Source: an uncultured delta proteobacterium (GTDB lineage Bacteria > Desulfobacterota > Syntrophia > Syntrophales > UBA2192). Taken from it: a stretch of 64,000 nt of DNA. The stretch is taken from the NCBI GenBank assembly GCA_963810965.1, contig CAWEPT010000017.1:55741-119740 (forward strand), in the 5' to 3' direction. The first letter of the stretch is position 1. The number at the start of each line of letters is the position of its first letter. The position numbers and the translations under genes were made by a program. The notes under the pieces are model-generated. The model did not search any database and was not told where the DNA came from. It saw nothing but the letters and a program-made list of their open reading frames with translations. Shown piece after piece: positions 3-61,416 of this stretch.

Positions 3-137
3 ATCTGGAGCACGATCGGGGTCTCCGAGAGCGTCATCGAGGCAAGCTGGCTTGCCCTGGTGGACAGCATCCAGTACAAGCTGAGCAAGGACAGGCTGAA
101 TCGGAACGGGAAGGAAGCGAGGAAGGCTGTCGCCTAA
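3..137 (+). CDS. cimA: 3' end of a citramalate / 2-isopropylmalate synthase family gene (partial, runs off window start)
   Basis: Frame 3 reads [44 protein letters not shown], then TAA at 135-137. This LeuA-dimer-type C-terminus and the position directly upstream of leuCD are typical of CimA/LeuA enzymes. Confidence 0.55.
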
Positions 138-138
138 A

Positions 139-166
139 CAGTGACCAGTGATTAGTGACCAGTGAC
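139..166. repeat. Four tandem heptads CAGTGAC CAGTGAT TAGTGAC CAGTGAC
   Basis: Read directly in the cimA-leuC spacer. No complementary arm was seen. Confidence 0.8.
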
Positions 167-181
167 CCGTGGAGTAATGAA

Positions 182-1459
182 ATGCCCATGACGATTACGG
201 AAAAGATACTTGCCAGGCACGCGGGGCTCGAGAGCGTTGCCCCGGGGGACCTCGTCGAGGTGAAGGTGGATCTTGCCTTCGCCCACGATTTCACGGCCCC
301 CATCGCCATCCAGGTTTTCAAGGAGATCGGCGCCCCGAAGGTCTTCGACCGAAAGAGGGTCGCCCTCGTGGCCGACCACTTCGTCCCCAACAAGGACATC
401 GCCTCGGCCGAGCAGGCCAAGCTCATGCGCGAGTTCGCCCGCGAGCAGCAGCTCGAGCTTTACTACGAGGTCGGTGAGGCCGGCATCGGCCACGTGCTTC
501 TGCCGGAGCAGGGCCTGGTCGCCCCGGGCCAGGTGATCATCGGGGCCGACAGCCACACCTGCGCCTACGGGGCCCTGGGGGCCTTTTCCACCGGCGTGGG
601 GAGCACCGACATGGCCGCCGTGATGGCCACGGGCGAGATCTGGCTTCGCGTCCCGCCGACGATCCGGGTCGAATACACGGGAGCCCTGAGGCCGCACGTG
701 GGCGGAAAGGACCTGATCCTTCGCCTCATCGGCGAGATCGGCGTCGAGGGTGCGCTGTACAGCGCTCTCGAGTTCTGCGGCGATACCCTCCGCGGGCTTT
801 CCATGCCGCACCGGTTCGCCATGGCGAACATGGCCATCGAGGCCGGGGCGAAAAACGGGATCATGGAGCCCGACGAGGTCACCCGCGCCTACGTGAAGGG
901 CCGGGCCCGGTGGGAGCCCGTTTTCCTCAAGAGCGACGCCGGCGCGAAATACGAAAGAACCATTTCGATCGACGTGAGCTCCCTCGAGCCGCAGATCGCC
1001 TTCCCCCCGTCGCCGGCAAACGTGAAGCCGGTCTCGGAGGCGAAAAACGTCACGCTGGACCAGGTCTTCATCGGTTCCTGCACCAACGGGTGGCTGGAGG
1101 ACCTGCGGGATGCAGCGAGTCTGCTGAAAGGCCGAAAGAAGGCGCCGGGCCTTCGCCTGATCGTCATCCCGGCCACTCCGACCATCCTTCAGGCGGCCAT
1201 GAAGGAGGGGATCATCGATACGTTCCTCGAGGCCGGCGCCGTCATCGGGCCGCCCTGCTGCGGGCCCTGCCTGGGAGGGCACATGGGGATCCTGGCCTCG
1301 GGCGAGCGGGCGCTGGCGACGACGAACCGCAATTTCGTCGGCCGCATGGGCCACCCGAAGAGCGAGGTCTTTCTCTGCAATCCCTTTGTGGCGGCGGCAT
1401 CGGCGGTGTTGGGGAGAATCGCAAGCTCCGGACGAATTATAAAGCAGTGTCTGGAGTGA
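182..1459 (+). CDS. leuC: 3-isopropylmalate/citramalate-pathway dehydratase large subunit (aconitase family)
   Basis: ORF 155-1459. Motifs seen: MTITEKILARH, GADSHTCAYGALGAF, IGSCTNG, CGPCLGGH. ATG 182 lies 7 nt after GGAG at 171-174. Confidence 0.9.
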   Translation: MPMTITEKILARHAGLESVAPGDLVEVKVDLAFAHDFTAPIAIQVFKEIGAPKVFDRKRVALVADHFVPNKDIASAEQAKLMREFAREQQLELYYEVGEAGIGHVLLPEQGLVAPGQVIIGADSHTCAYGALGAFSTGVGSTDMAAVMATGEIWLRVPPTIRVEYTGALRPHVGGKDLILRLIGEIGVEGALYSALEFCGDTLRGLSMPHRFAMANMAIEAGAKNGIMEPDEVTRAYVKGRARWEPVFLKSDAGAKYERTISIDVSSLEPQIAFPPSPANVKPVSEAKNVTLDQVFIGSCTNGWLEDLRDAASLLKGRKKAPGLRLIVIPATPTILQAAMKEGIIDTFLEAGAVIGPPCCGPCLGGHMGILASGERALATTNRNFVGRMGHPKSEVFLCNPFVAAASAVLGRIASSGRIIKQCLE

Positions 1460-1519
1460 AATGGAGTACATGGGTCTGAGTGAAGAAAGACAGATTCCAA
1501 CATTCATTATTCCATTCTC
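1452..1519. repeat. Possible word-repeat hairpin (TGGAGTG/AATGGAGTA arm versus ATTCCAA CATTCAT TATTCCA TTCTC arm)
   Basis: The imperfect complementary arms are built from heptad-like words. The element overlaps the leuC stop in the leuC-leuD spacer. Confidence 0.3.
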
Positions 1520-1564
1520 GCACTGCAGACACTCGGATAGTCACTTCGACTGTAAGGAGACGAC

Positions 1565-3791: not shown

Positions 3792-4740
3792 ATGGAACTG
3801 AAATTCAGCAGGATGGATCGGGTCGTCGGCGTCTTCCTCATCCTCGTCGTCGCCCTCATGGTGGGCACGGTGGTCCTTCTCGGGCGCGGCAAGGACTGGT
3901 TCCGGCCCACGGTGACCTACTATGCGCAGTTCAAGGAGAACTACAATCTCGCGCCGGGCTCGTCGGTGAAGCTCTTCAAGGCCGAGATCGGGCATGTGAA
4001 GTCCGTGCAGCTCGTCGGGGATGCCGTCCGCGTGCGGCTGTCGATCTTCGAGGAGTATCACAACCGGTTCCGGCAGGACACGGTGGTCACCGTCGAGAGC
4101 CCCACCTTCATCGGGTCGGAATACGTGGCCGTGCGCCCGGGCAAACCCGACAGCCCCCTGATTCCCGCCGGGAGGGACGATCAAATCCGAGGAGAAGAAG
4201 ACCCTCTCGCAGATCCTGGCGGAGTACGAGGTGGAGGAGACGGCCAAGCGCCTGACGGAGACCATCCGGAACCTCGCCGACATCGTCGAGGAATTGAGAG
4301 ACCCGCAGGGACCGCTCTTCGTCTCGCTGAACAGCATCGAGAAAAACCTGAAAAATCTGGAAACGGTCACCACCGGCCTGAAGGAAGGCGAGGGGACGGC
4401 GGGTCAGCTCCTGCGGTCCGACGAGTTGATCAACCGGGTGAACACCTCCATGGAGAGGCTCGACAATGTCTTGAAAAACATCGAGGGCGCCACCCCCGAG
4501 GTGACGGCCAATCTGCGGGAGAGCATGGAGAAAATCCGGGAGATCACGGCCAACCTCGAGAAGGGCAGCCGCGAGGTCCCGGCCGTGATCCGGACGACGA
4601 AGCGCGGCATCCAGGAAATCCGGGACGGTGTGGACGAGATCAATCGCGTCGTCAAGGCCCTCGAAAAGGCCCCCGTAATCAGGGGAAACCTCCCGCCGAA
4701 GCCCGAGGGGAAGGACCTGGACGCGGGACTGAGGAAGTGA
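3792..4740 (+). CDS. mlaD: MlaD/MCE-family substrate-binding protein with a long helical C-terminal extension (frame change near 4185)
   Basis: ORF 3792-4751 gives an N-terminal TM segment plus an MCE domain (YYAQFKENYNLAPGSSVKLFKAEIGHV). ORF 4231-4740 supplies the coiled C-terminus. Confidence 0.8.
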
Positions 4741-5675: not shown

Positions 5676-5699
5676 CACCTTCGACGCATAGGCAATGAT

Positions 5700-5783
5700 G
5701 AGTTTTGAGTTTCGAGTTATGAGTTGAAGAGGAGGAACAGAGCCTTCTCCAATTCATAACTCAAAATTCATAACTCAAAACTC
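5700..5783. repeat. Long imperfect hairpin with arms of tandem heptads (GAGTTNN x4 versus NAACTCA/AATTCA words)
   Basis: 5700-5732 reads GAGTTTT GAGTTTC GAGTTAT GAGTTGA AGAGG. 5743-5783 reads CCTTCTCC AATTCA TAACTCA AAATTCA TAACTCA AAACTC. The element is AT-rich relative to its flanks. Confidence 0.8.
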
Positions 5784-5791
5784 GGTGGTTC

Positions 5792-54785: not shown

Positions 54786-56384
54786 TTATACACTTGTCTT
54801 TCGCAGAAGCAGCTTGAGTTCCTCCAGCGTATCCGCCTCCTCGGGCGGCTTGTCCTTCCACTTCACGATGCGGGGCGAGCGGAGGGTCAGGCCCGATTTG
54901 TGTCGCGCAGACGTCTCGATGCCCTCGAAGGCGATCTCGAAGACGAGCTGCGGACTCACGGAGCGCACGGGTCCGAATTTCTCGAGGGTGTTCTGCCGGA
55001 TGAAGGCGTCGATGCGCCCGATTTCGTCATCGGTGAGCCCGGAGCAGGCCCTGGCCACGGGAACGAGGTCGCCCCGGCGCCAAACCCCGAAGGTGTAGTC
55101 GGTAAAAAGGTTTTCCCTCCCAGCCTGTCCGGGCCGGGCGTAGATGAGGATCGCGTCGATCGTGTGAGGCTCGATCTTCCACTTCCACCAGCTGCCCCGG
55201 TGCCGCCCCGCCTCGTAGGGCGAATCGAGGTGCTTGAGCATGAGCCCCTCGGCTTGCACGGCGCGACACTCCCGGCGCCTCGCCGTCAGATCCTCCCAGC
55301 TTGCATCTTTCAGGATCTCCGACAGGCGGAGGCGTCCCTCAAAGCCGCGTTGTCCGAGAATCCTCTCCAGTTCGGCCCGCCGATTTCGCAGGGGCTCCGT
55401 CCGGATGTCCTTTCCCTGCGACTCGAGGAGGTCGAAGGCCATGAAGATGACGGGAATCTCCTCGAGGATCTTCCGGGTCGGTGACTGGCGCCCGATCCGT
55501 CTTCTGCAGCAGGCTGAAGGGCAGGGGGCTTCCGTCTTTCCAGGGGAGGATCTCCCCGTCGATGACCGTGCCGTCCGGCAGGGTTGCCGCTGCGTCCGCA
55601 AGCTCGGGAAATGTCCGTCCAAGCAGCTCCCCGCCCCGGGACCAGATGAAGGCCATCCCGCCGCGTTTGACGACCTGGGCCCGGATCCCGTCCCGTTTCC
55701 ATTCGGCGCACCACTGGCGCCTGTCTCCGAGGGTCTCGGGCAGCGCGTCGAGCGGGAAGGCGAGCTGGAGCGGGTAAGGGCGGCTCACATCCGCCTCCCC
55801 CCGGTCCGGCGAGAGGAGCCAGCGGAAAAACTCTCCTGTGGGCTCCCAGGCGCTCATGAGCCGGTGCGAGATGACGGTGGCTTCCAGACCGGCGAGCTCG
55901 CCGAGTGCCCGGATGATCGTCTGCCGCGAGATGCCCACACGGAGATCCCCCGTGATCATCTTGTTCCAGACAAGCCGCTGCCTGTCGTCCATCTCCCGCC
56001 AGGTGCCGAGAATGGAGTCCCTGAGGGATGTCTCATCGTCATCCTGCAGCGGCAGAAGCCTCTCCTCCACCGTTGCCCGCAGCCCCAGGGGGCTCGACAC
56101 CCCGTCAGCCGCCGGGAGCAGCAGCGCGATCGTTTCTGCCACATCGCCCACCGCCTCATTGCATTCGTCGATAAGCCAACCCGGTATACCCGCTGCCAAG
56201 GAGGCCCATTCTTTGAGTTTCGCCGTGGGGACAGTGCGCTTGATTTTGTCGCCGATAAGAAACCAGAGGGCCCAGGCCGCATCGTCGGGCGGCGCCTCGG
56301 CAAAGTAGCGCTTCAGCGCCTCGACCTTGCTGCGGTCTTCGTCGTCTCGTCGAGGGTGAAATAAAGGTCGGTAAACCGTTGCAT
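54786..56384 (-). CDS. ATP-dependent DNA ligase (ligase-associated damage-response type) (2 frame changes)
   Basis: ORFs 55339-56391 and 54786-55622. Contains the adenylation motif CAEWKRDGIR, plus EGLMLK and WWKWK. The natural start MQRFTDLYFTLDETTKT (ATG 56384) is out of frame with the body. Confidence 0.85.
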
Positions 56385-56395
56385 AAGACACCGGG

Positions 56396-56501
56396 TTAAT
56401 GGAGTAATGGAATGGTGGAATGATGGGGTTAAGGATACGGGATTCTTTTTATCACCCATTATTCCATCACTCCAATATTCCAGTATTCCATTCTTCCTTA
56501 A
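56396..56501. repeat. Word-repeat hairpin (TAATGGA/GTAATGG/AATGGTG words versus TATTCCA/TCACTCC/AATATTC/CAGTATTCCA)
   Basis: Read directly between the exonuclease stop (56498-56500) and the ligase start. AT-rich. Confidence 0.75.
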
Positions 56502-57499
56502 TCTTCCGTCGTCTCATCGGCTGCAAACCTGGCCTTCAGCGGTTTGGCGTCGATGCCTTTCTCCCGGAGCATGCGCACGACGGGGGAGACAAAACCGTGG
56601 GTGACATGGACCTCTTCGGCCCCCGTTGCCGCGATCGTCTCCATCAGGCCGGGCCAGTCCGCGTGGTCCGAGAGAACGAAGCCGCGATCGACGCCGCGGC
56701 GGCGCCTCATCCCGCGGATGCGCATCCAGCCCGAGGCCAGGGCCGTCGAGCACTCGCCGAACTGCCTCATCCAGGTTGTGCCGCGGGCAGAGGGCGGCGC
56801 GAGGATGATCGCCCGGCTGAAATCACTTTTCTTTGTCGCCTTCTCCACGGGGAGCGTGTTCGGAAGCCCCACGCCGCTCATCCGGTAGCGCCGGTTCATC
56901 TCCTCCACCAGGCTGTGCGTATACACGGGACCCATGGAAGGATCGAGCCCCATGAGGACGCTCTGCGCCTTGCCGAGGACATAGGCCAGGATCACGCTGG
57001 CGCGGCCCGCTTCCTGGTTCGATCTCCACCAGGCACGGATCTCTTCGAAGACACGCGCCGGATCGTCCCAGCGATAGACGGGCAGCCCGAAGGTCGACTC
57101 GGTGATGAAGCTCTGGCATCGAAGAAGCTCGAAGGGCGTGCAGGTGGGGTCGGCCTGGATCTTGTAATCGCCGCTGAAGACCGTCACGTGCCCCCGGTGC
57201 TCGATCCGCACCTGGGCCGAGCCCAGGATGTGGCCGGCGGGGTGCAGCGACAGGCGATAGCCGTTGAGGTCGACGGCCTCCCCGTATTCCAGCAGCTGGA
57301 TCGTGGCCTCGTTTCCCAGGCGTGTCCTCAGGACGTGGCTGCCCTCGCGGGATGCCAGGTAGTGCCCGCACCCCTTGCAGGTGTGATCGGCATGCGCGTG
57401 GGTGATGACGGCGCGATCCACGGGGCCCCAGGGGTCGATGTGGAAGCCGCCGGCCTCGCAGGCAAGGCCCCGCTCTGTCATGCGAAGGGGGAACATCAT
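56498..57499 (-). CDS. Ligase-associated DNA damage response exonuclease (metallo-beta-lactamase/beta-CASP fold)
   Basis: Lies within ORF 56498-57646, starting at ATG 57499. Contains ITHAHADH, ESTFGLP and VLSDHADW. Confidence 0.8.
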   Translation of the reverse strand: MMFPLRMTERGLACEAGGFHIDPWGPVDRAVITHAHADHTCKGCGHYLASREGSHVLRTRLGNEATIQLLEYGEAVDLNGYRLSLHPAGHILGSAQVRIEHRGHVTVFSGDYKIQADPTCTPFELLRCQSFITESTFGLPVYRWDDPARVFEEIRAWWRSNQEAGRASVILAYVLGKAQSVLMGLDPSMGPVYTHSLVEEMNRRYRMSGVGLPNTLPVEKATKKSDFSRAIILAPPSARGTTWMRQFGECSTALASGWMRIRGMRRRRGVDRGFVLSDHADWPGLMETIAATGAEEVHVTHGFVSPVVRMLREKGIDAKPLKARFAADETTED

Positions 57500-57754
57500 G
57501 ACTCGAGTATGGCATAAACCCGCAAACCCTGCAACGGCACATGGGTTTCCGGACGTTTCCCCGTGCCCGCGGCACCCGGAAAATGTGCTTGACAGGCATT
57601 GCGGCGTGGCGATATGTTGCGCCGTGTGGTCTAAGGGGGGGACCATTCTGGAGGGAATAGGGGCCGGTGATCAAGGGTCTGTCAGCGGTTCCCGGTTTTT
57701 CTGTCAGAGTGTCAGCTCCCGGTCATCGAGAATTTTTTAACAGGAGGGAGCACG

Positions 57755-58641: not shown

Positions 58642-58700
58642 AAAAAGGCGAGCGGACTCTGAACGAACAAGAGGCGGGGATTGCGGTCCTCGCCTTTTTT
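58641..58700 (+). terminator. Long-range stem AAAAAAGGCGAG...CTCGCCTTTTTT (terminator-like)
   Basis: 12-bp complementary ends flank a 36-nt insert and are followed by a T-run, immediately after the cNMP-binding gene. Confidence 0.4.
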
Positions 58701-58844
58701 CGTCTATCTCGTCTATTCAGTCTATTCGGTCTATTTCGTCGAAAGAATGGAACGATGCGACCATCAATCGGGTTCCGACGAAACGAGACCGAAAAGACTA
58801 GAAAGACCGAACAGACGGAATAGACCGAAAAGACGAGATCAGAC
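58701..58844. repeat. Word-repeat hairpin with 9-nt periodicity (GTCTATNNN x4 versus GACNGAANA x6)
   Basis: 58701-58741 reads CGTCTATCTC GTCTATTCA GTCTATTCG GTCTATTTC GTCG. 58776-58844 reads CGACGAAAC GAGACCGAAAA GACTAGAAA GACCGAACA GACGGAATA GACCGAAAA GACGAGATC AGAC. Confidence 0.8.
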
Positions 58845-58850
58845 CAGAGC

Positions 58851-60883: not shown

Positions 60884-60909
60884 CCGTATCCGGTCAAGTG
60901 CCGTGCCGA

Positions 60910-61230
60910 TCAGCCGCACTCACCGCCGCAGCCGCCGCAGCCGTCGGCCTTCTGAAGGCTGGAGGTGATCGCGTAGCCCGACCCGCGGGGTGTCTCGACG
61001 AAATCGACCTTGATGGGTTTCACGTTTTCCAAAAGCGCCTTCTCGATCATGAAGGTCAGCCCGTTCGTGGTGAAAACTTCGTCGCCTTCCTGTGACTCAT
61101 CCAGAGCCATGCCCAGGGAGGGCCCGGCTCAGCCACCCTCGTTGAGGAATATCCTGACGAGGGCTTTCTCGTTGCGTTCCTTGAAAAACGCAACCATCAT
61201 CTCTTCCGCTTTGGGTGTGATTTCAAACAT
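60910..61230 (-). CDS. HesB/IscA-like protein with an in-frame UGA (candidate selenocysteine, codon 34)
   Basis: GGAGGA-N7-ATG at 61230. Reads MFEITPKAEEMMVAFFKERNEKALVRIFLNEGG-UGA(61131-61129)-AGPSLGMALDESQEG..., continuing as ORF 60910-61110 and ending ..ADGCGGCGGECG*. The UGA sits where IscA/HesB proteins carry the GGC Cys. Confidence 0.65.
61106..61128 (-). promoter_or_regulatory. Hairpin immediately 3' of the UGA (candidate bacterial SECIS)
   Basis: The mRNA reads GCCGGGCCCUCCCUGGGCAUGGC. GCCG pairs with UGGC and GCCC with GGGC, around a UCCCU loop. Confidence 0.35.
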
Positions 61231-61310
61231 TTAAATTTCCTCCGGAGAAATTATCATCTTAGATTAATGTGCACACGATTTGTGCCTTGTCAAACGATAT
61301 TTTAGGGGAT

Positions 61311-61379
61311 AGGTAACAGGTGACAGCCGACAGCCAACAGATCCCTTCTATCTGGCTGTAGACTGTAGACCTGTCACCT
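61311..61379. repeat. Word-repeat hairpin (AGGTAAC AGGTGAC AGCCGAC AGCCAAC AGATCCC versus CTGGCTGT AGACTGT AGACCTGT CACCT)
   Basis: Read directly in the divergent spacer between the HesB-like and radical SAM genes. Confidence 0.75.
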
Positions 61380-61416
61380 GAAGCCTCACGTAAGATAGAA
61401 TCCACCAGCTTAGAAA

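Follow-up and report, generated by a model that had tools for sequence, protein, structure and literature searches.

We analysed a 64-kb stretch of DNA from an uncultured member of the Syntrophales (positions 55,741 to 119,740 of contig CAWEPT010000017.1, referred to here as the window) for intergenic elements built from short tandem words. These elements consist of runs of four to eight imperfect 7–9-nt units which are found only in the extragenic DNA of the native genome. There are usually two inverted runs, with which either DNA strand, or a transcript crossing the element, is predicted to be able to fold into an imperfect stem of 30–50 bp that pairs in more than one register. The original prediction had been centred on one such hairpin at 5700–5783, between the genes of a TPR protein and a PfkB-family kinase, and had named further loci with the same architecture. 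We confirmed the letters of the left arm (GAGTTTT GAGTTTC GAGTTAT GAGTTGA) and found that the right arm reads (CC)AATTC ATAACTC AAAATTC ATAACTC AAAACTC. The 5690–5790 region folds strongly as RNA (-41.0 kcal/mol, z -6.96, with 0/200 shuffles as good), and the 5696–5783 element also folds as DNA (-20 kcal/mol, z -5.8). The hairpins at 56393–56502, 58695–58847 and 61308–61379 were likewise found to be real, as was a single unpaired array at 137–171. The features of the window are as follows:

137–171, plus strand: unpaired array of five 7-nt units, ACAGTGA CCAGTGA TTAGTGA CCAGTGA CCCGTGG (Tandem Repeats Finder (TRF) and custom scan)
1445–1545, plus strand: decayed word hairpin in the leuC–leuD spacer (weak fold and orthologue alignment)
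5696–5727, plus strand: 5' arm of four 7-nt units GAGTT(TT/TC/AT/GA), rich in G and T
5729–5749, plus strand: central mini-hairpin and loop, GAGGAGG-N7-CCTTCTC (minimum free energy structure)
5749–5783, plus strand: 3' arm of five 7-nt units nnAA(C/T)TC, with zero G
56393–56435, minus strand: one arm of an 8-nt word hairpin, the C-rich 3' arm of the sense strand
56456–56502, minus strand: partner arm, reading GGAATACT GGAATATT GGAGTGAT GGAATAAT on the sense (minus) strand
58663–58703, plus strand: terminator-like GC-rich stem followed by a T-run, after a cNMP-binding-domain gene (DNA fold)
58695–58745, plus strand: 5' arm of a 9-nt word hairpin, five units of (T/C)CGTCTATn (complement of AGACnGAAn)
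58777–58847, plus strand: 3' arm of seven to eight units AGAC(C/G/T)nnAn
61308–61341, plus strand: 5' arm of a 7-nt word hairpin, GGTAACA GGTGACA GCCGACA GCCAACA
61351–61379, plus strand: 3' arm, TCTGGCTGTAGACTGTAGACCTGTCACC

The arms of the four paired loci are separated by 15–65 nt, and the three remaining hairpins were also found to fold well, with -46.8 and -40.8 kcal/mol for the plus and minus strands of 56385–56510 (z -5.0 and -4.0), -54.6 kcal/mol for 58695–58844 (z -5.7), and -37.3 and -44.1 kcal/mol for 61300–61390 (z -4.2 and -5.9). The 137–171 array is tandem only, with no hairpin in a fold of 130–185 (z +0.9). A probable further case had been proposed at 1452–1519, and here the fold itself is weak (-21.6 kcal/mol for 1445–1525, z -1.6), while the larger 1445–1545 region is the orthologue of a strong 8-nt GTGTCTGA / TCAGACAC hairpin in three related genomes (L001, L003 and L008; see below), of which it is a decayed version.

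Enrichment over shuffled controls was borne out by an array scan (at least four units, a period of 7–10, unit-to-unit identity of at least 72%, and low complexity removed), which found eight arrays in the window compared with 0.10 per composition-preserving shuffle, all eight of them at the loci of the original prediction. The same scan of ten relatives (L001–L010) gave 0.5–3.6 arrays per 10 kb compared with about 0.1 in shuffles. The word elements are the longest inverted repeats anywhere in the 64 kb, each pairing in several registers, and are more AT-rich than their surroundings as had been claimed (GC 0.36–0.51, compared with 0.54–0.66 in the flanks). No second copy of any element was found by blastn within the window, in agreement with the view that they are not a set of near-identical copies there. 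Rfam returned no match at gathering thresholds and only far sub-threshold miRNA-precursor hits at E-values up to 1, which we took to be hairpin noise in rejecting a known RNA family, and a literature search by 9-mer sequence returned unrelated primer matches only.

Gene context and native DNA

The elements were said to occupy short spacers, mostly between co-directional genes, and this is the case for four loci and likewise for 58695, but the latter follows a terminator-like hairpin, and the description fails for 61308–61379, which lies between a HesB-like gene on the minus strand and a B12-binding radical SAM gene on the plus strand. The elements begin at or just past the upstream stop codon and finish 4–25 nt ahead of the next start. 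Their neighbours encode a TPR protein, a PfkB kinase, LeuC, LeuD, a DNA ligase, a cNMP-binding protein, an ABC-F ATPase and a radical SAM enzyme (LeuC and LeuD were identified from sequence and the other neighbours by Pfam).

The 137–171 array begins 1 nt past the upstream stop codon and its final unit merges into the GGAG before the leuC start, the first word of the 1445–1545 element provides the last leuC codons and the stop, and the 5749–5783 arm ends 8 nt upstream of the PfkB-family kinase ATG, immediately before GGTGG. The 56393–56502 hairpin lies between two minus-strand genes, one at 56498–57646 without a Pfam hit and the other for the ATP-dependent DNA ligase, with the G-rich 5' arm (56456–56502) immediately 3' of the stop codon and the other arm adjoining GGTG and the ATG at 56391 on the ligase side. 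The 58777–58847 arm extends to 4 nt before the ABC-F ATPase ATG without a canonical Shine-Dalgarno sequence, and part of this arm is unpaired because it has more units than the 5' arm. The T-run of the 58663–58703 stem overlaps the start of the 58695 element; this stem is conserved in L007 and L010, and was not called by our terminator consensus scan, which considers loops of up to 8 nt only. Consensus scans for sigma-70 promoters and terminators inside the elements found nothing convincing. We note here that the right arm of the ABC-F hairpin contains a TTGACG-N17-TAGAAA sequence conserved between L007 (12940–12985) and L010 (13270–13315), that the window counterpart (58765–58805) reads TTCCGACG, and that none of the three differs in the unit AGACTAGAA. 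A possible promoter at this site would leave the left arm upstream of the transcript. The consensus scan did not call it, and we offer it as a lead only.

The closest relatives of the window are Syntrophaceae/Syntrophales metagenome-assembled genomes (MAGs), and the ten MAGs L001–L010 are syntenic with it. Relative to L005, L006, L007 and L010, which have the same flanking genes, 8.7–54.7 kb of the window (~46 kb) is an insertion with a GC of 0.57 compared with 0.63 in the rest of the window. This block encodes glycosyltransferases, FemAB-like and AlgX/SGNH-like proteins, an acyl-CoA dehydrogenase and an AMP-binding enzyme, and is probably an acquired surface-polysaccharide cluster. All eight arrays are located in the ~18 kb shared with relatives and none in the 46-kb insertion (P ~5e-4 for six independent loci). 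As all of the arrays lie outside the insertion and relatives carry such arrays too, the elements are a mark of the native genome. They are not artefacts of assembly, since the orthologous spacers of ten independently assembled genomes contain the same elements or analogous ones.

Turnover, composition polarity and word vocabulary

Where a spacer of the window has an element, most relatives also hold one in the orthologous spacer, often a different one made of other words. In the TPR–pfkB spacer, the GAGTTnn hairpin is common to the window, L005, L006 and L007; in L002, L009 and L010 a CGAGGWY array is followed by a small hairpin and by AGACnGRAT 9-mers that extend into the ATG; L001 and L003 have an AGAC 9-mer array with different left arrays (GTGTCTnA in L001 and other words in L003); and L004 and L008 have a CAGGCTTC / CCCGAATC hairpin. 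Upstream of leuC, a CAGTGAC array is found in the window, L002 and L009 (~92% identity in L009), with a GGTAAGAG hairpin in L003 and a GAAGAGCG hairpin in L008. In the spacer before the radical SAM gene, GACAGCC words are found in the window, an unrelated AGGGTAT / ATACCCT hairpin in L007 and nothing in L010, while L005 has a short outer hairpin only (GGTAACAGGCGACAGG...CCTGTCACC), both arms of which are expanded at 61308–61379 of the window, a case of in-situ growth. The 56393–56502 hairpin has a diverged homologue in L007 (0.65 identity). It should be noted that unpaired arrays and non-complementary array pairs occupy the same spacers as the hairpins, and the hairpin is therefore not the basic unit.

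Replication slippage, which had been suggested as a source of the arrays, is evident from whole-unit differences between near-identical copies: the leuC–leuD hairpins of L001, L003 and L008 have 4, 5 and 5 units in the left arm and 6, 5 and 6 in the right with the rest near-identical, and there are five CAGTGAC units in the window compared with six in L002. Perfect, young arrays are found in L005/L006, L012, L014, L069 and L151. Some elements have persisted for a long time. The 5696–5783 hairpin is 92% identical to those of L005–L007, compared with 0.60–0.64 at the four-fold sites of the flanking genes, and the ABC-F hairpin has 0.81 and 0.72 identity with L007 and L010, compared with 0.65 at four-fold sites. 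Arms are better conserved than loops, and in the alignment with L005, L006 and L007 the 5729–5749 centre is more variable between species than the arms. The window and L005–L007 elements share flanks (TGACACCTT... and GGTGnnCCATG), which makes them orthologous and not independent insertions. The comparison with L001 gives a different picture, as four-fold sites are 0.84–0.93 identical yet the spacers are not alignable (0.49), and for the leuC–leuD spacer the identity is 0.74 compared with 0.92 at four-fold sites. The coding DNA beside the swapped spacer remains closest to L001 right up to the spacer edge, and on this basis we rejected a long homologous-recombination tract as the cause. The elements thus persist, decay, or get replaced as spacer-sized cassettes. 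Neither target-site duplications nor clean empty sites were seen by eye in the orthologous spacers, where we observed replacement and not insertion.

Two further observations come from these comparisons. In L007 (5738–5948) the entire GAGTTnn hairpin is tandemly duplicated as a ~108-nt unit which includes the GGTGnACCAT ribosome-binding region, indicating that duplication of entire elements also occurs. At the LeuC C-terminus (1430–1462), the open reading frame (ORF) enters the first word by 5–10 codons in the window, L001, L003, L008 and L009 and ends with an array-supplied TGA. The LeuC alignment ends ~10 residues earlier in L002, L006, L007 and L010, and in L002, L006 and L007 the leuC ORFs end soon after the alignment does (…PEEL* in L002 and L006). 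The leuC–leuD element has therefore rewritten the end of a conserved enzyme.

The arms also differ in base composition in a consistent order. Among 69 non-redundant word hairpins from all loci (66 informative), the 5' arm has more G than C in 54 and more C than G in 12, and an independent inverted-repeat finder gave G-first ratios of 22:3 for periodic arms compared with 116:76 for ordinary hairpins. A G-first arrangement reads alike on both strands, and locus orientation therefore cannot produce this polarity. As a composition rule that holds across unrelated words, it speaks against both an unbiased mutational process and the word-specific binding of double strands, and it fits a constraint on single strands, either RNA or single-stranded DNA. 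For example, a G-rich arm might be made first, with the C-rich, G-poor arm being paired as soon as it emerges.

Foldback was also examined in viral contigs, where 18 of 140 GAGTT arrays had an inverted partner within 150 nt, in all cases on the 3' side and never on the 5' side, and none was seen in controls, indicating that the foldback is not due to chance. These arrays were found in co-directional (50), convergent (16) and divergent (4) spacers with no sense or antisense preference (21 vs 29). Repetitive extragenic palindromic (REP) elements likewise prefer co-directional or convergent over divergent spacers.

The original prediction had stressed a different word at every locus. This holds within the window, where blastn found no second copy, but not in the lineage, and since families recur at other spacers and genomes the apparent absence of related words is a sampling effect. 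GTGTCTGA is found in two L001 spacers (including adjoining GAGTGAAGAA), GGTGAGAG in different spacers of L003 and L006, and the AGACnGAAn 9-mer family of 58777–58847, with the 9-mer itself at 58786–58835, also upstream of pfkB in L001, L002, L003, L009 and L010. When metagenomes were scanned for four AGACnnnAn units, the hits comprised coding and eukaryote-like noise together with many soil and sediment contigs (GC 0.50–0.63). The latter contain ATCTGGTCT...AGACCAGAT hairpins, with two or three on some and a central sequence common to different contigs, and also hairpins of other words (ATTCTGA, GAACTGA, GGTAAAC and GGAGAGTT); several of the metagenome AGAC arrays stop 10–20 nt before an ATG. 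The fetched loci together contain about 90 distinct canonical 7/8-mer words, and this clade has at least 14 word families. Six-unit heptamer arrays in viral contigs (37 stretches for GAGTT, 13 for GATGT and 17 for GGTAT) are all far above chance, and GAGTT is just 2–3 times commoner than the two control cores, so that we rejected it as a unique word. Overall, the architecture is general and the vocabulary broad, with modest word preferences.

We also looked for a common denominator among the words and rejected three candidates. A special leader unit (AAAGCAGTT) before GAGTT arrays is not supported, as the edges are degenerate units (AAGTT 19, CAGTT 14 and TAGTT 12); three-frame stop codons as the purpose of the 5' arm fit several words by eye, but not GAAGATCG, CAGGCTTC or TCGTCTAT; and CsrA-type GGA motifs or Shine-Dalgarno-like cores are found in some words only.

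Further observations were made in the same data sets. Word arrays or hairpins are also present in lineages fetched by chance, including Smithella-type Syntrophales, an Acidobacteriota MAG and a Geobacter MAG (L012 2403–2711; L014 4310–4656; L026 1837–1888, 6091–6168 and 14191–14236; L025 1460–1493), and some of these are long and perfect (GGAGACA x18 and AGGCAGG x8). The phage-like contigs L220, L206, L201 and L189 have 3–5 separate GAGTTnn arrays each, and in L182 such an array directly adjoins the end of a tRNA gene; phage genomes may commonly contain heptamer arrays that have gone unremarked. Upstream of leuC, L001 has an unrelated ~130-nt inverted repeat (4180–4330; GGCTTGTGAAAAACGGCC … GGCCATTTTTGACAAGCC) which is not a word array and may be a conventional miniature inverted-repeat transposable element (MITE). 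The TPR-gene stop lies inside a short perfect palindrome in relatives (GCGAATGACGCC…GGCGTCATTCGC or TAATCGCAAA; around 9880–9915 in L002, L003, L009 and L010, and at the TPR gene stop in L004 and L008), and this is separate from the word arrays. The gene at 2316 is preceded by a block, CTTCCCGGTTGACGAACCGGGGGGTTTCGTTTAAAGTTTTACC (2240–2290), which shows high conservation in the orthologous regions of L001–L010 and is probably a promoter or operator. Finally, the small HesB/IscA-like ORF at 60907–61230 (minus strand) has an in-frame TGA (…FLNEGG*AGPSLGMALDES…GCGGCGGECG*) which is probably a selenocysteine codon, because it is conserved in L005, L006, L007 and L010; the C-terminal GCGGCGG tract of this ORF corresponds to a 9-nt 'CAGCCGCCG' repeat (TRF 60911–60943).

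Possible explanations

We tentatively favour an explanation in which these are foldback short-tandem-repeat elements, built by slippage and kept as REP-like extragenic palindromes, that would act as intercistronic stem-loops when transcribed. The origin and dynamics are shown by the comparisons above, and the function is what we infer. The hairpins would be co-transcribed with the flanking genes to give intercistronic stem-loops ending just before the next ribosome-binding site, and these could insulate or stabilise mRNA segments, could keep the untranslated C-rich arm from exposure, and might perhaps bring the stop codon and next start codon together. Function would then be set by architecture and not by word.

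A number of observations weigh against this explanation. The sense strand is the better-folding one in just 8 of 22 hairpins, with the two strands folding equally well (for the same reason we rejected selection on sense-strand RNA through G-U pairs). Of 27 pairs in the leuC–leuD alignment, 1 is compensatory, and the covariation term is positive; the few substitutions seen in 5700-type arms disrupt pairs. Unit variants do not follow a mirrored order in the two arms any more closely than permuted units do (of seven tests, two had the units out of phase and gave no information), which suggests that more than a single inverted duplication was involved. Unpaired arrays are also conserved (137–171, as well as CGAGGWY and AGACnGRAT in L002, L009 and L010), and a hairpin role cannot account for these. 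Two elements (58695 and 61308) are in likely promoter regions outside operons, and great similarity between distant relatives combined with unalignability between close ones can be explained by transfer or mobility no less readily than by purifying selection.

It is possible, if unlikely, that the elements are dispersed selfish foldback elements of a REPIN- or MITE-like kind, forming small non-autonomous families which are copied between spacers and genomes, with the tandem sub-repeats as the recognition or structural part of the ends and any host effects incidental. Word families do recur at non-orthologous spacers (GTGTCTGA with GAGTGAAGAA in L001, GGTGAGAG in L003 and L006, and the AGAC 9-mers), and AGAC 9-mer hairpins are found two to three times on single short metagenome contigs with a central sequence common across contigs. 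Near-identical elements in distant relatives, swaps confined to the spacer while flanking coding DNA tracks species relatedness, the absence of elements from the recently inserted 46-kb cluster, and the tandem duplicate of a whole hairpin in L007 are also consistent with mobility, and in G. metallireducens analogous classes with 8–24 pairs per genome attract insertion sequence (IS) insertions (PMC2700814). However, there is no second copy of an element within 64 kb, no target-site duplication or clean empty site was seen by eye, and a transposase or RAYT-like (REP-associated tyrosine transposase) gene was neither looked for nor seen beside the elements. Furthermore, the elements of the window and L005–L007 are orthologous and not independent insertions by their shared flanks, and about 90 words would require very many families or a structure-specific mobilising enzyme.

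We also think it unlikely that the word hairpins form a functional class of their own, widespread in Syntrophales, Geobacter, Acidobacteriota, phages, and many uncultured bacteria of soil and sediment. Members of such a class would be periodic foldback elements with a polarity that puts the G-rich arm first whichever strand is read, would act through their architecture and not their sequence, and would be exchanged between related genomes as spacer-sized cassettes. They might provide an intercistronic stem, tolerant of register, by which untranslated C-rich RNA is shielded and the stop is coupled to the next start, or might be a scaffold for an oligomeric single-strand-binding factor.

Binding arrays in double-stranded DNA, occupied by oligomerising proteins with one dimer per 7–9-bp unit (ribbon-helix-helix-like) or by IHF/HU-type regulators, seem to us improbable. 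The format matches the ParB/omega heptads of pSM19035 (PMC9499535) and the ACTC boxes of ParG (PMC3130281), as the 5700 element reads GAGT+TTT ... ACTC+AAA, and the greater conservation of arms than loops, the variable inter-arm distance, the lack of RNA covariation, and the location of the 58695 and 61308 elements in likely promoter regions would all be compatible with protein sites, a model which also permits unpaired arrays. Such binding would nonetheless require a cognate protein per word for at least 14 families in the clade and about 90 words overall, and a Pfam search of the neighbours found no ribbon-helix-helix (RHH) or partition gene among the adjacent genes. Most elements are between co-transcribed genes, their unit numbers drift freely, and the G-first polarity of unrelated words is a composition rule and not a property of protein sites.

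The subset of elements abutting start codons (the AGACnGAAn 9-mers and the CAGTGAC array) might instead be single-stranded RNA arrays acting on translation initiation through multivalent binding by the ribosome (S1) or an RNA-binding protein, with the inverted arm as a cis-acting mask, and this too we regard as improbable. It draws on the AGAC arrays that run into the ATG in the sense orientation, at the ABC-F gene (window, L007 and L010) and at pfkB (L001, L002, L003, L009 and L010), where the genes have little or no Shine-Dalgarno sequence, on the surplus of right-arm units which leaves some unpaired, and on the metagenome arrays which end 10–20 nt before an ATG; the same proposal has been made for TAACTGA repeats (PMC4679880). 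Against this, it covers only a subset of the elements, the viral GAGTT arrays have no sense or antisense preference (21 vs 29), and the words are too diverse for a single binding protein.

A pure mutational by-product of slippage and snap-back template switching in non-coding DNA, with neither function nor mobility, is in our view very improbable. Such a process might leave behind unit indels, young arrays that are still perfect, array edges of degenerate units and decayed elements such as 1445–1545, and it would agree with the lack of both covariation and strand bias; heptamer arrays of any word are common here as they are in prokaryotic long simple sequence repeats (Mrazek 2007, to the extent summarised in PMC4679880). 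On the other side are the recurrence of word families at different loci and the far greater conservation of some elements compared with four-fold sites, and the strong G-first polarity would be unexpected from an unbiased process unless fold-back priming needs a G/T-rich strand. Chance or assembly artefact can be dismissed, since its support goes no further than the fact that repeats can be mis-assembled, while eight arrays are observed compared with 0.1 in shuffles and ten independent assemblies contain orthologous elements.

Passing reports of tandem-word hairpins date back to the 1990s in cyanobacteria and to 2009 in Geobacter. Here the architecture is found to be dense in another lineage, with about 4 arrays per 10 kb of native DNA, and new handles are provided by its absence from recently acquired DNA, its strong composition polarity, and the mixture of long persistence with spacer-limited replacement. 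If the elements shape operon expression, then gene-finding and operon models of high-GC anaerobes overlook a common regulatory layer, and if they are selfish or mutational, they would be useful for telling native from acquired DNA and as an indicator of some replication or repair property peculiar to the lineage.

Comparison with known repeat systems

The elements had not been recognised as a described class, but this needs correction as there are three earlier descriptions of the architecture, none of which comes with a proven function (PMC2670836, PMC2700814 and PMC4679880). [quoted passage not shown] Both systems have ~7-nt tandem units in operon spacers which form hairpins and are variable between close relatives, and heptanucleotide intergenic units of this kind are found at 137–171, 5696–5783 and 61308–61379. 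The STRR consensus words are CCCCART, TTKGTCA and CAACAGT. None of these is found in tandem in the window, which comes from Syntrophales and not from a heterocyst-forming cyanobacterium, and the units here are imperfect, 7, 8 or 9 nt in length, and from many word families compared with three.

A second likeness comes from a lineage related to that of the window (former Deltaproteobacteria). Aklujkar et al. (2009) described three classes of paired opposite-strand sites in G. metallireducens, each with 3–5 tandem 7–9-nt repeats and a variable distance between them, including an example of the Gmet_I sites between proB and proA, and guessed at IHF or HU binding (PMC2700814). The paired opposite-strand tandem architecture is identical at four loci of the window, and in Geobacter also there are several word classes per genome which are intergenic with a variable inter-arm distance. 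The Geobacter words GTTGCTYN, TCTCCGTS[Y] and MTYCTGA differ in having no tandem match in the window (an array of ATTCTGA, the class 3 word, is present in the metagenome locus L114), and BLAST finds 8–24 pairs per class in Geobacter. The window covers 64 kb of its genome, in which there is no second copy.

TAACTGA arrays located just upstream of start codons were described by MacGregor (2015), who suggested S1, Csp or CsrA binding, and are found in marine Beggiatoaceae, cyanobacteria and Bacteroidetes (PMC4679880). These heptamer arrays lie a few nt upstream of starts, often replacing the ribosome-binding site, and in this resemble the AGAC 9-mers at the ABC-F and pfkB genes, but they have one dominant word and are nearly all direct repeats (one indirect set in 170), whereas here there are many words and mostly inverted pairs. 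According to the summary of Mrazek (2007) given in PMC4679880, heptamers dominate the long simple sequence repeats of prokaryotes (5–11-nt units), which are put down to slippage. Our elements share the non-coding location and tandem repetition of that class, with heptamers commonest, and the viral-contig controls agree with this, but that class is long and near-perfect while the arrays here are short (4–8 units), degenerate, inverted-paired and polar.

The RHH arrays are a further likeness. ParB/omega of pSM19035 requires at least four contiguous 7-bp heptads in direct or inverted orientation (PMC9499535), and ParG of TP228 binds degenerate ACTC boxes with 4-bp AT-rich spacers, both direct and inverted (PMC3130281). 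Four to eight contiguous units per arm here compare with at least four contiguous 7–8-bp units there, direct or inverted, and the GAGT+TTT / ACTC+AAA sequence has the box-and-spacer format. The RHH arrays differ in being found at promoters beside their own par or regulator genes, with one word per system and contiguous units without a 15–65-nt loop, and no RHH, ParA or regulator gene is adjacent to the window elements. Nor are these CRISPR arrays, as the 7–9-nt units are contiguous, compared with repeats of ~24–48 nt with unique spacers, or intrinsic terminators, as the word hairpins are AT-rich, 30–50 bp and without a T-run, and only the separate 58663–58703 stem fits that description.

With REP, BIME and REPIN elements, our elements share a form of 80–150-nt imperfect spacer hairpins, found mostly after genes in co-directional or convergent spacers, and present or absent at orthologous sites. 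REP, BIME and REPIN elements are co-transcribed and species-specific. A REP family numbers hundreds of near-identical copies, which share a conserved GTAG end, are served by a cognate RAYT transposase and have arms that are not built of tandem sub-repeats. No GTAG-type end was evident in the element sequences we read, and within 64 kb there are no near-identical copies; word families do recur across relatives and metagenome contigs. The inverted arms of MITEs and foldback transposons are also present here, although the duplications and clean empty sites expected of these were not seen by eye in orthologous spacers. The word hairpins are a further case of a known, poorly understood repeat type, and the polarity rule and cassette-like turnover are the aspects of it most worth pursuing.

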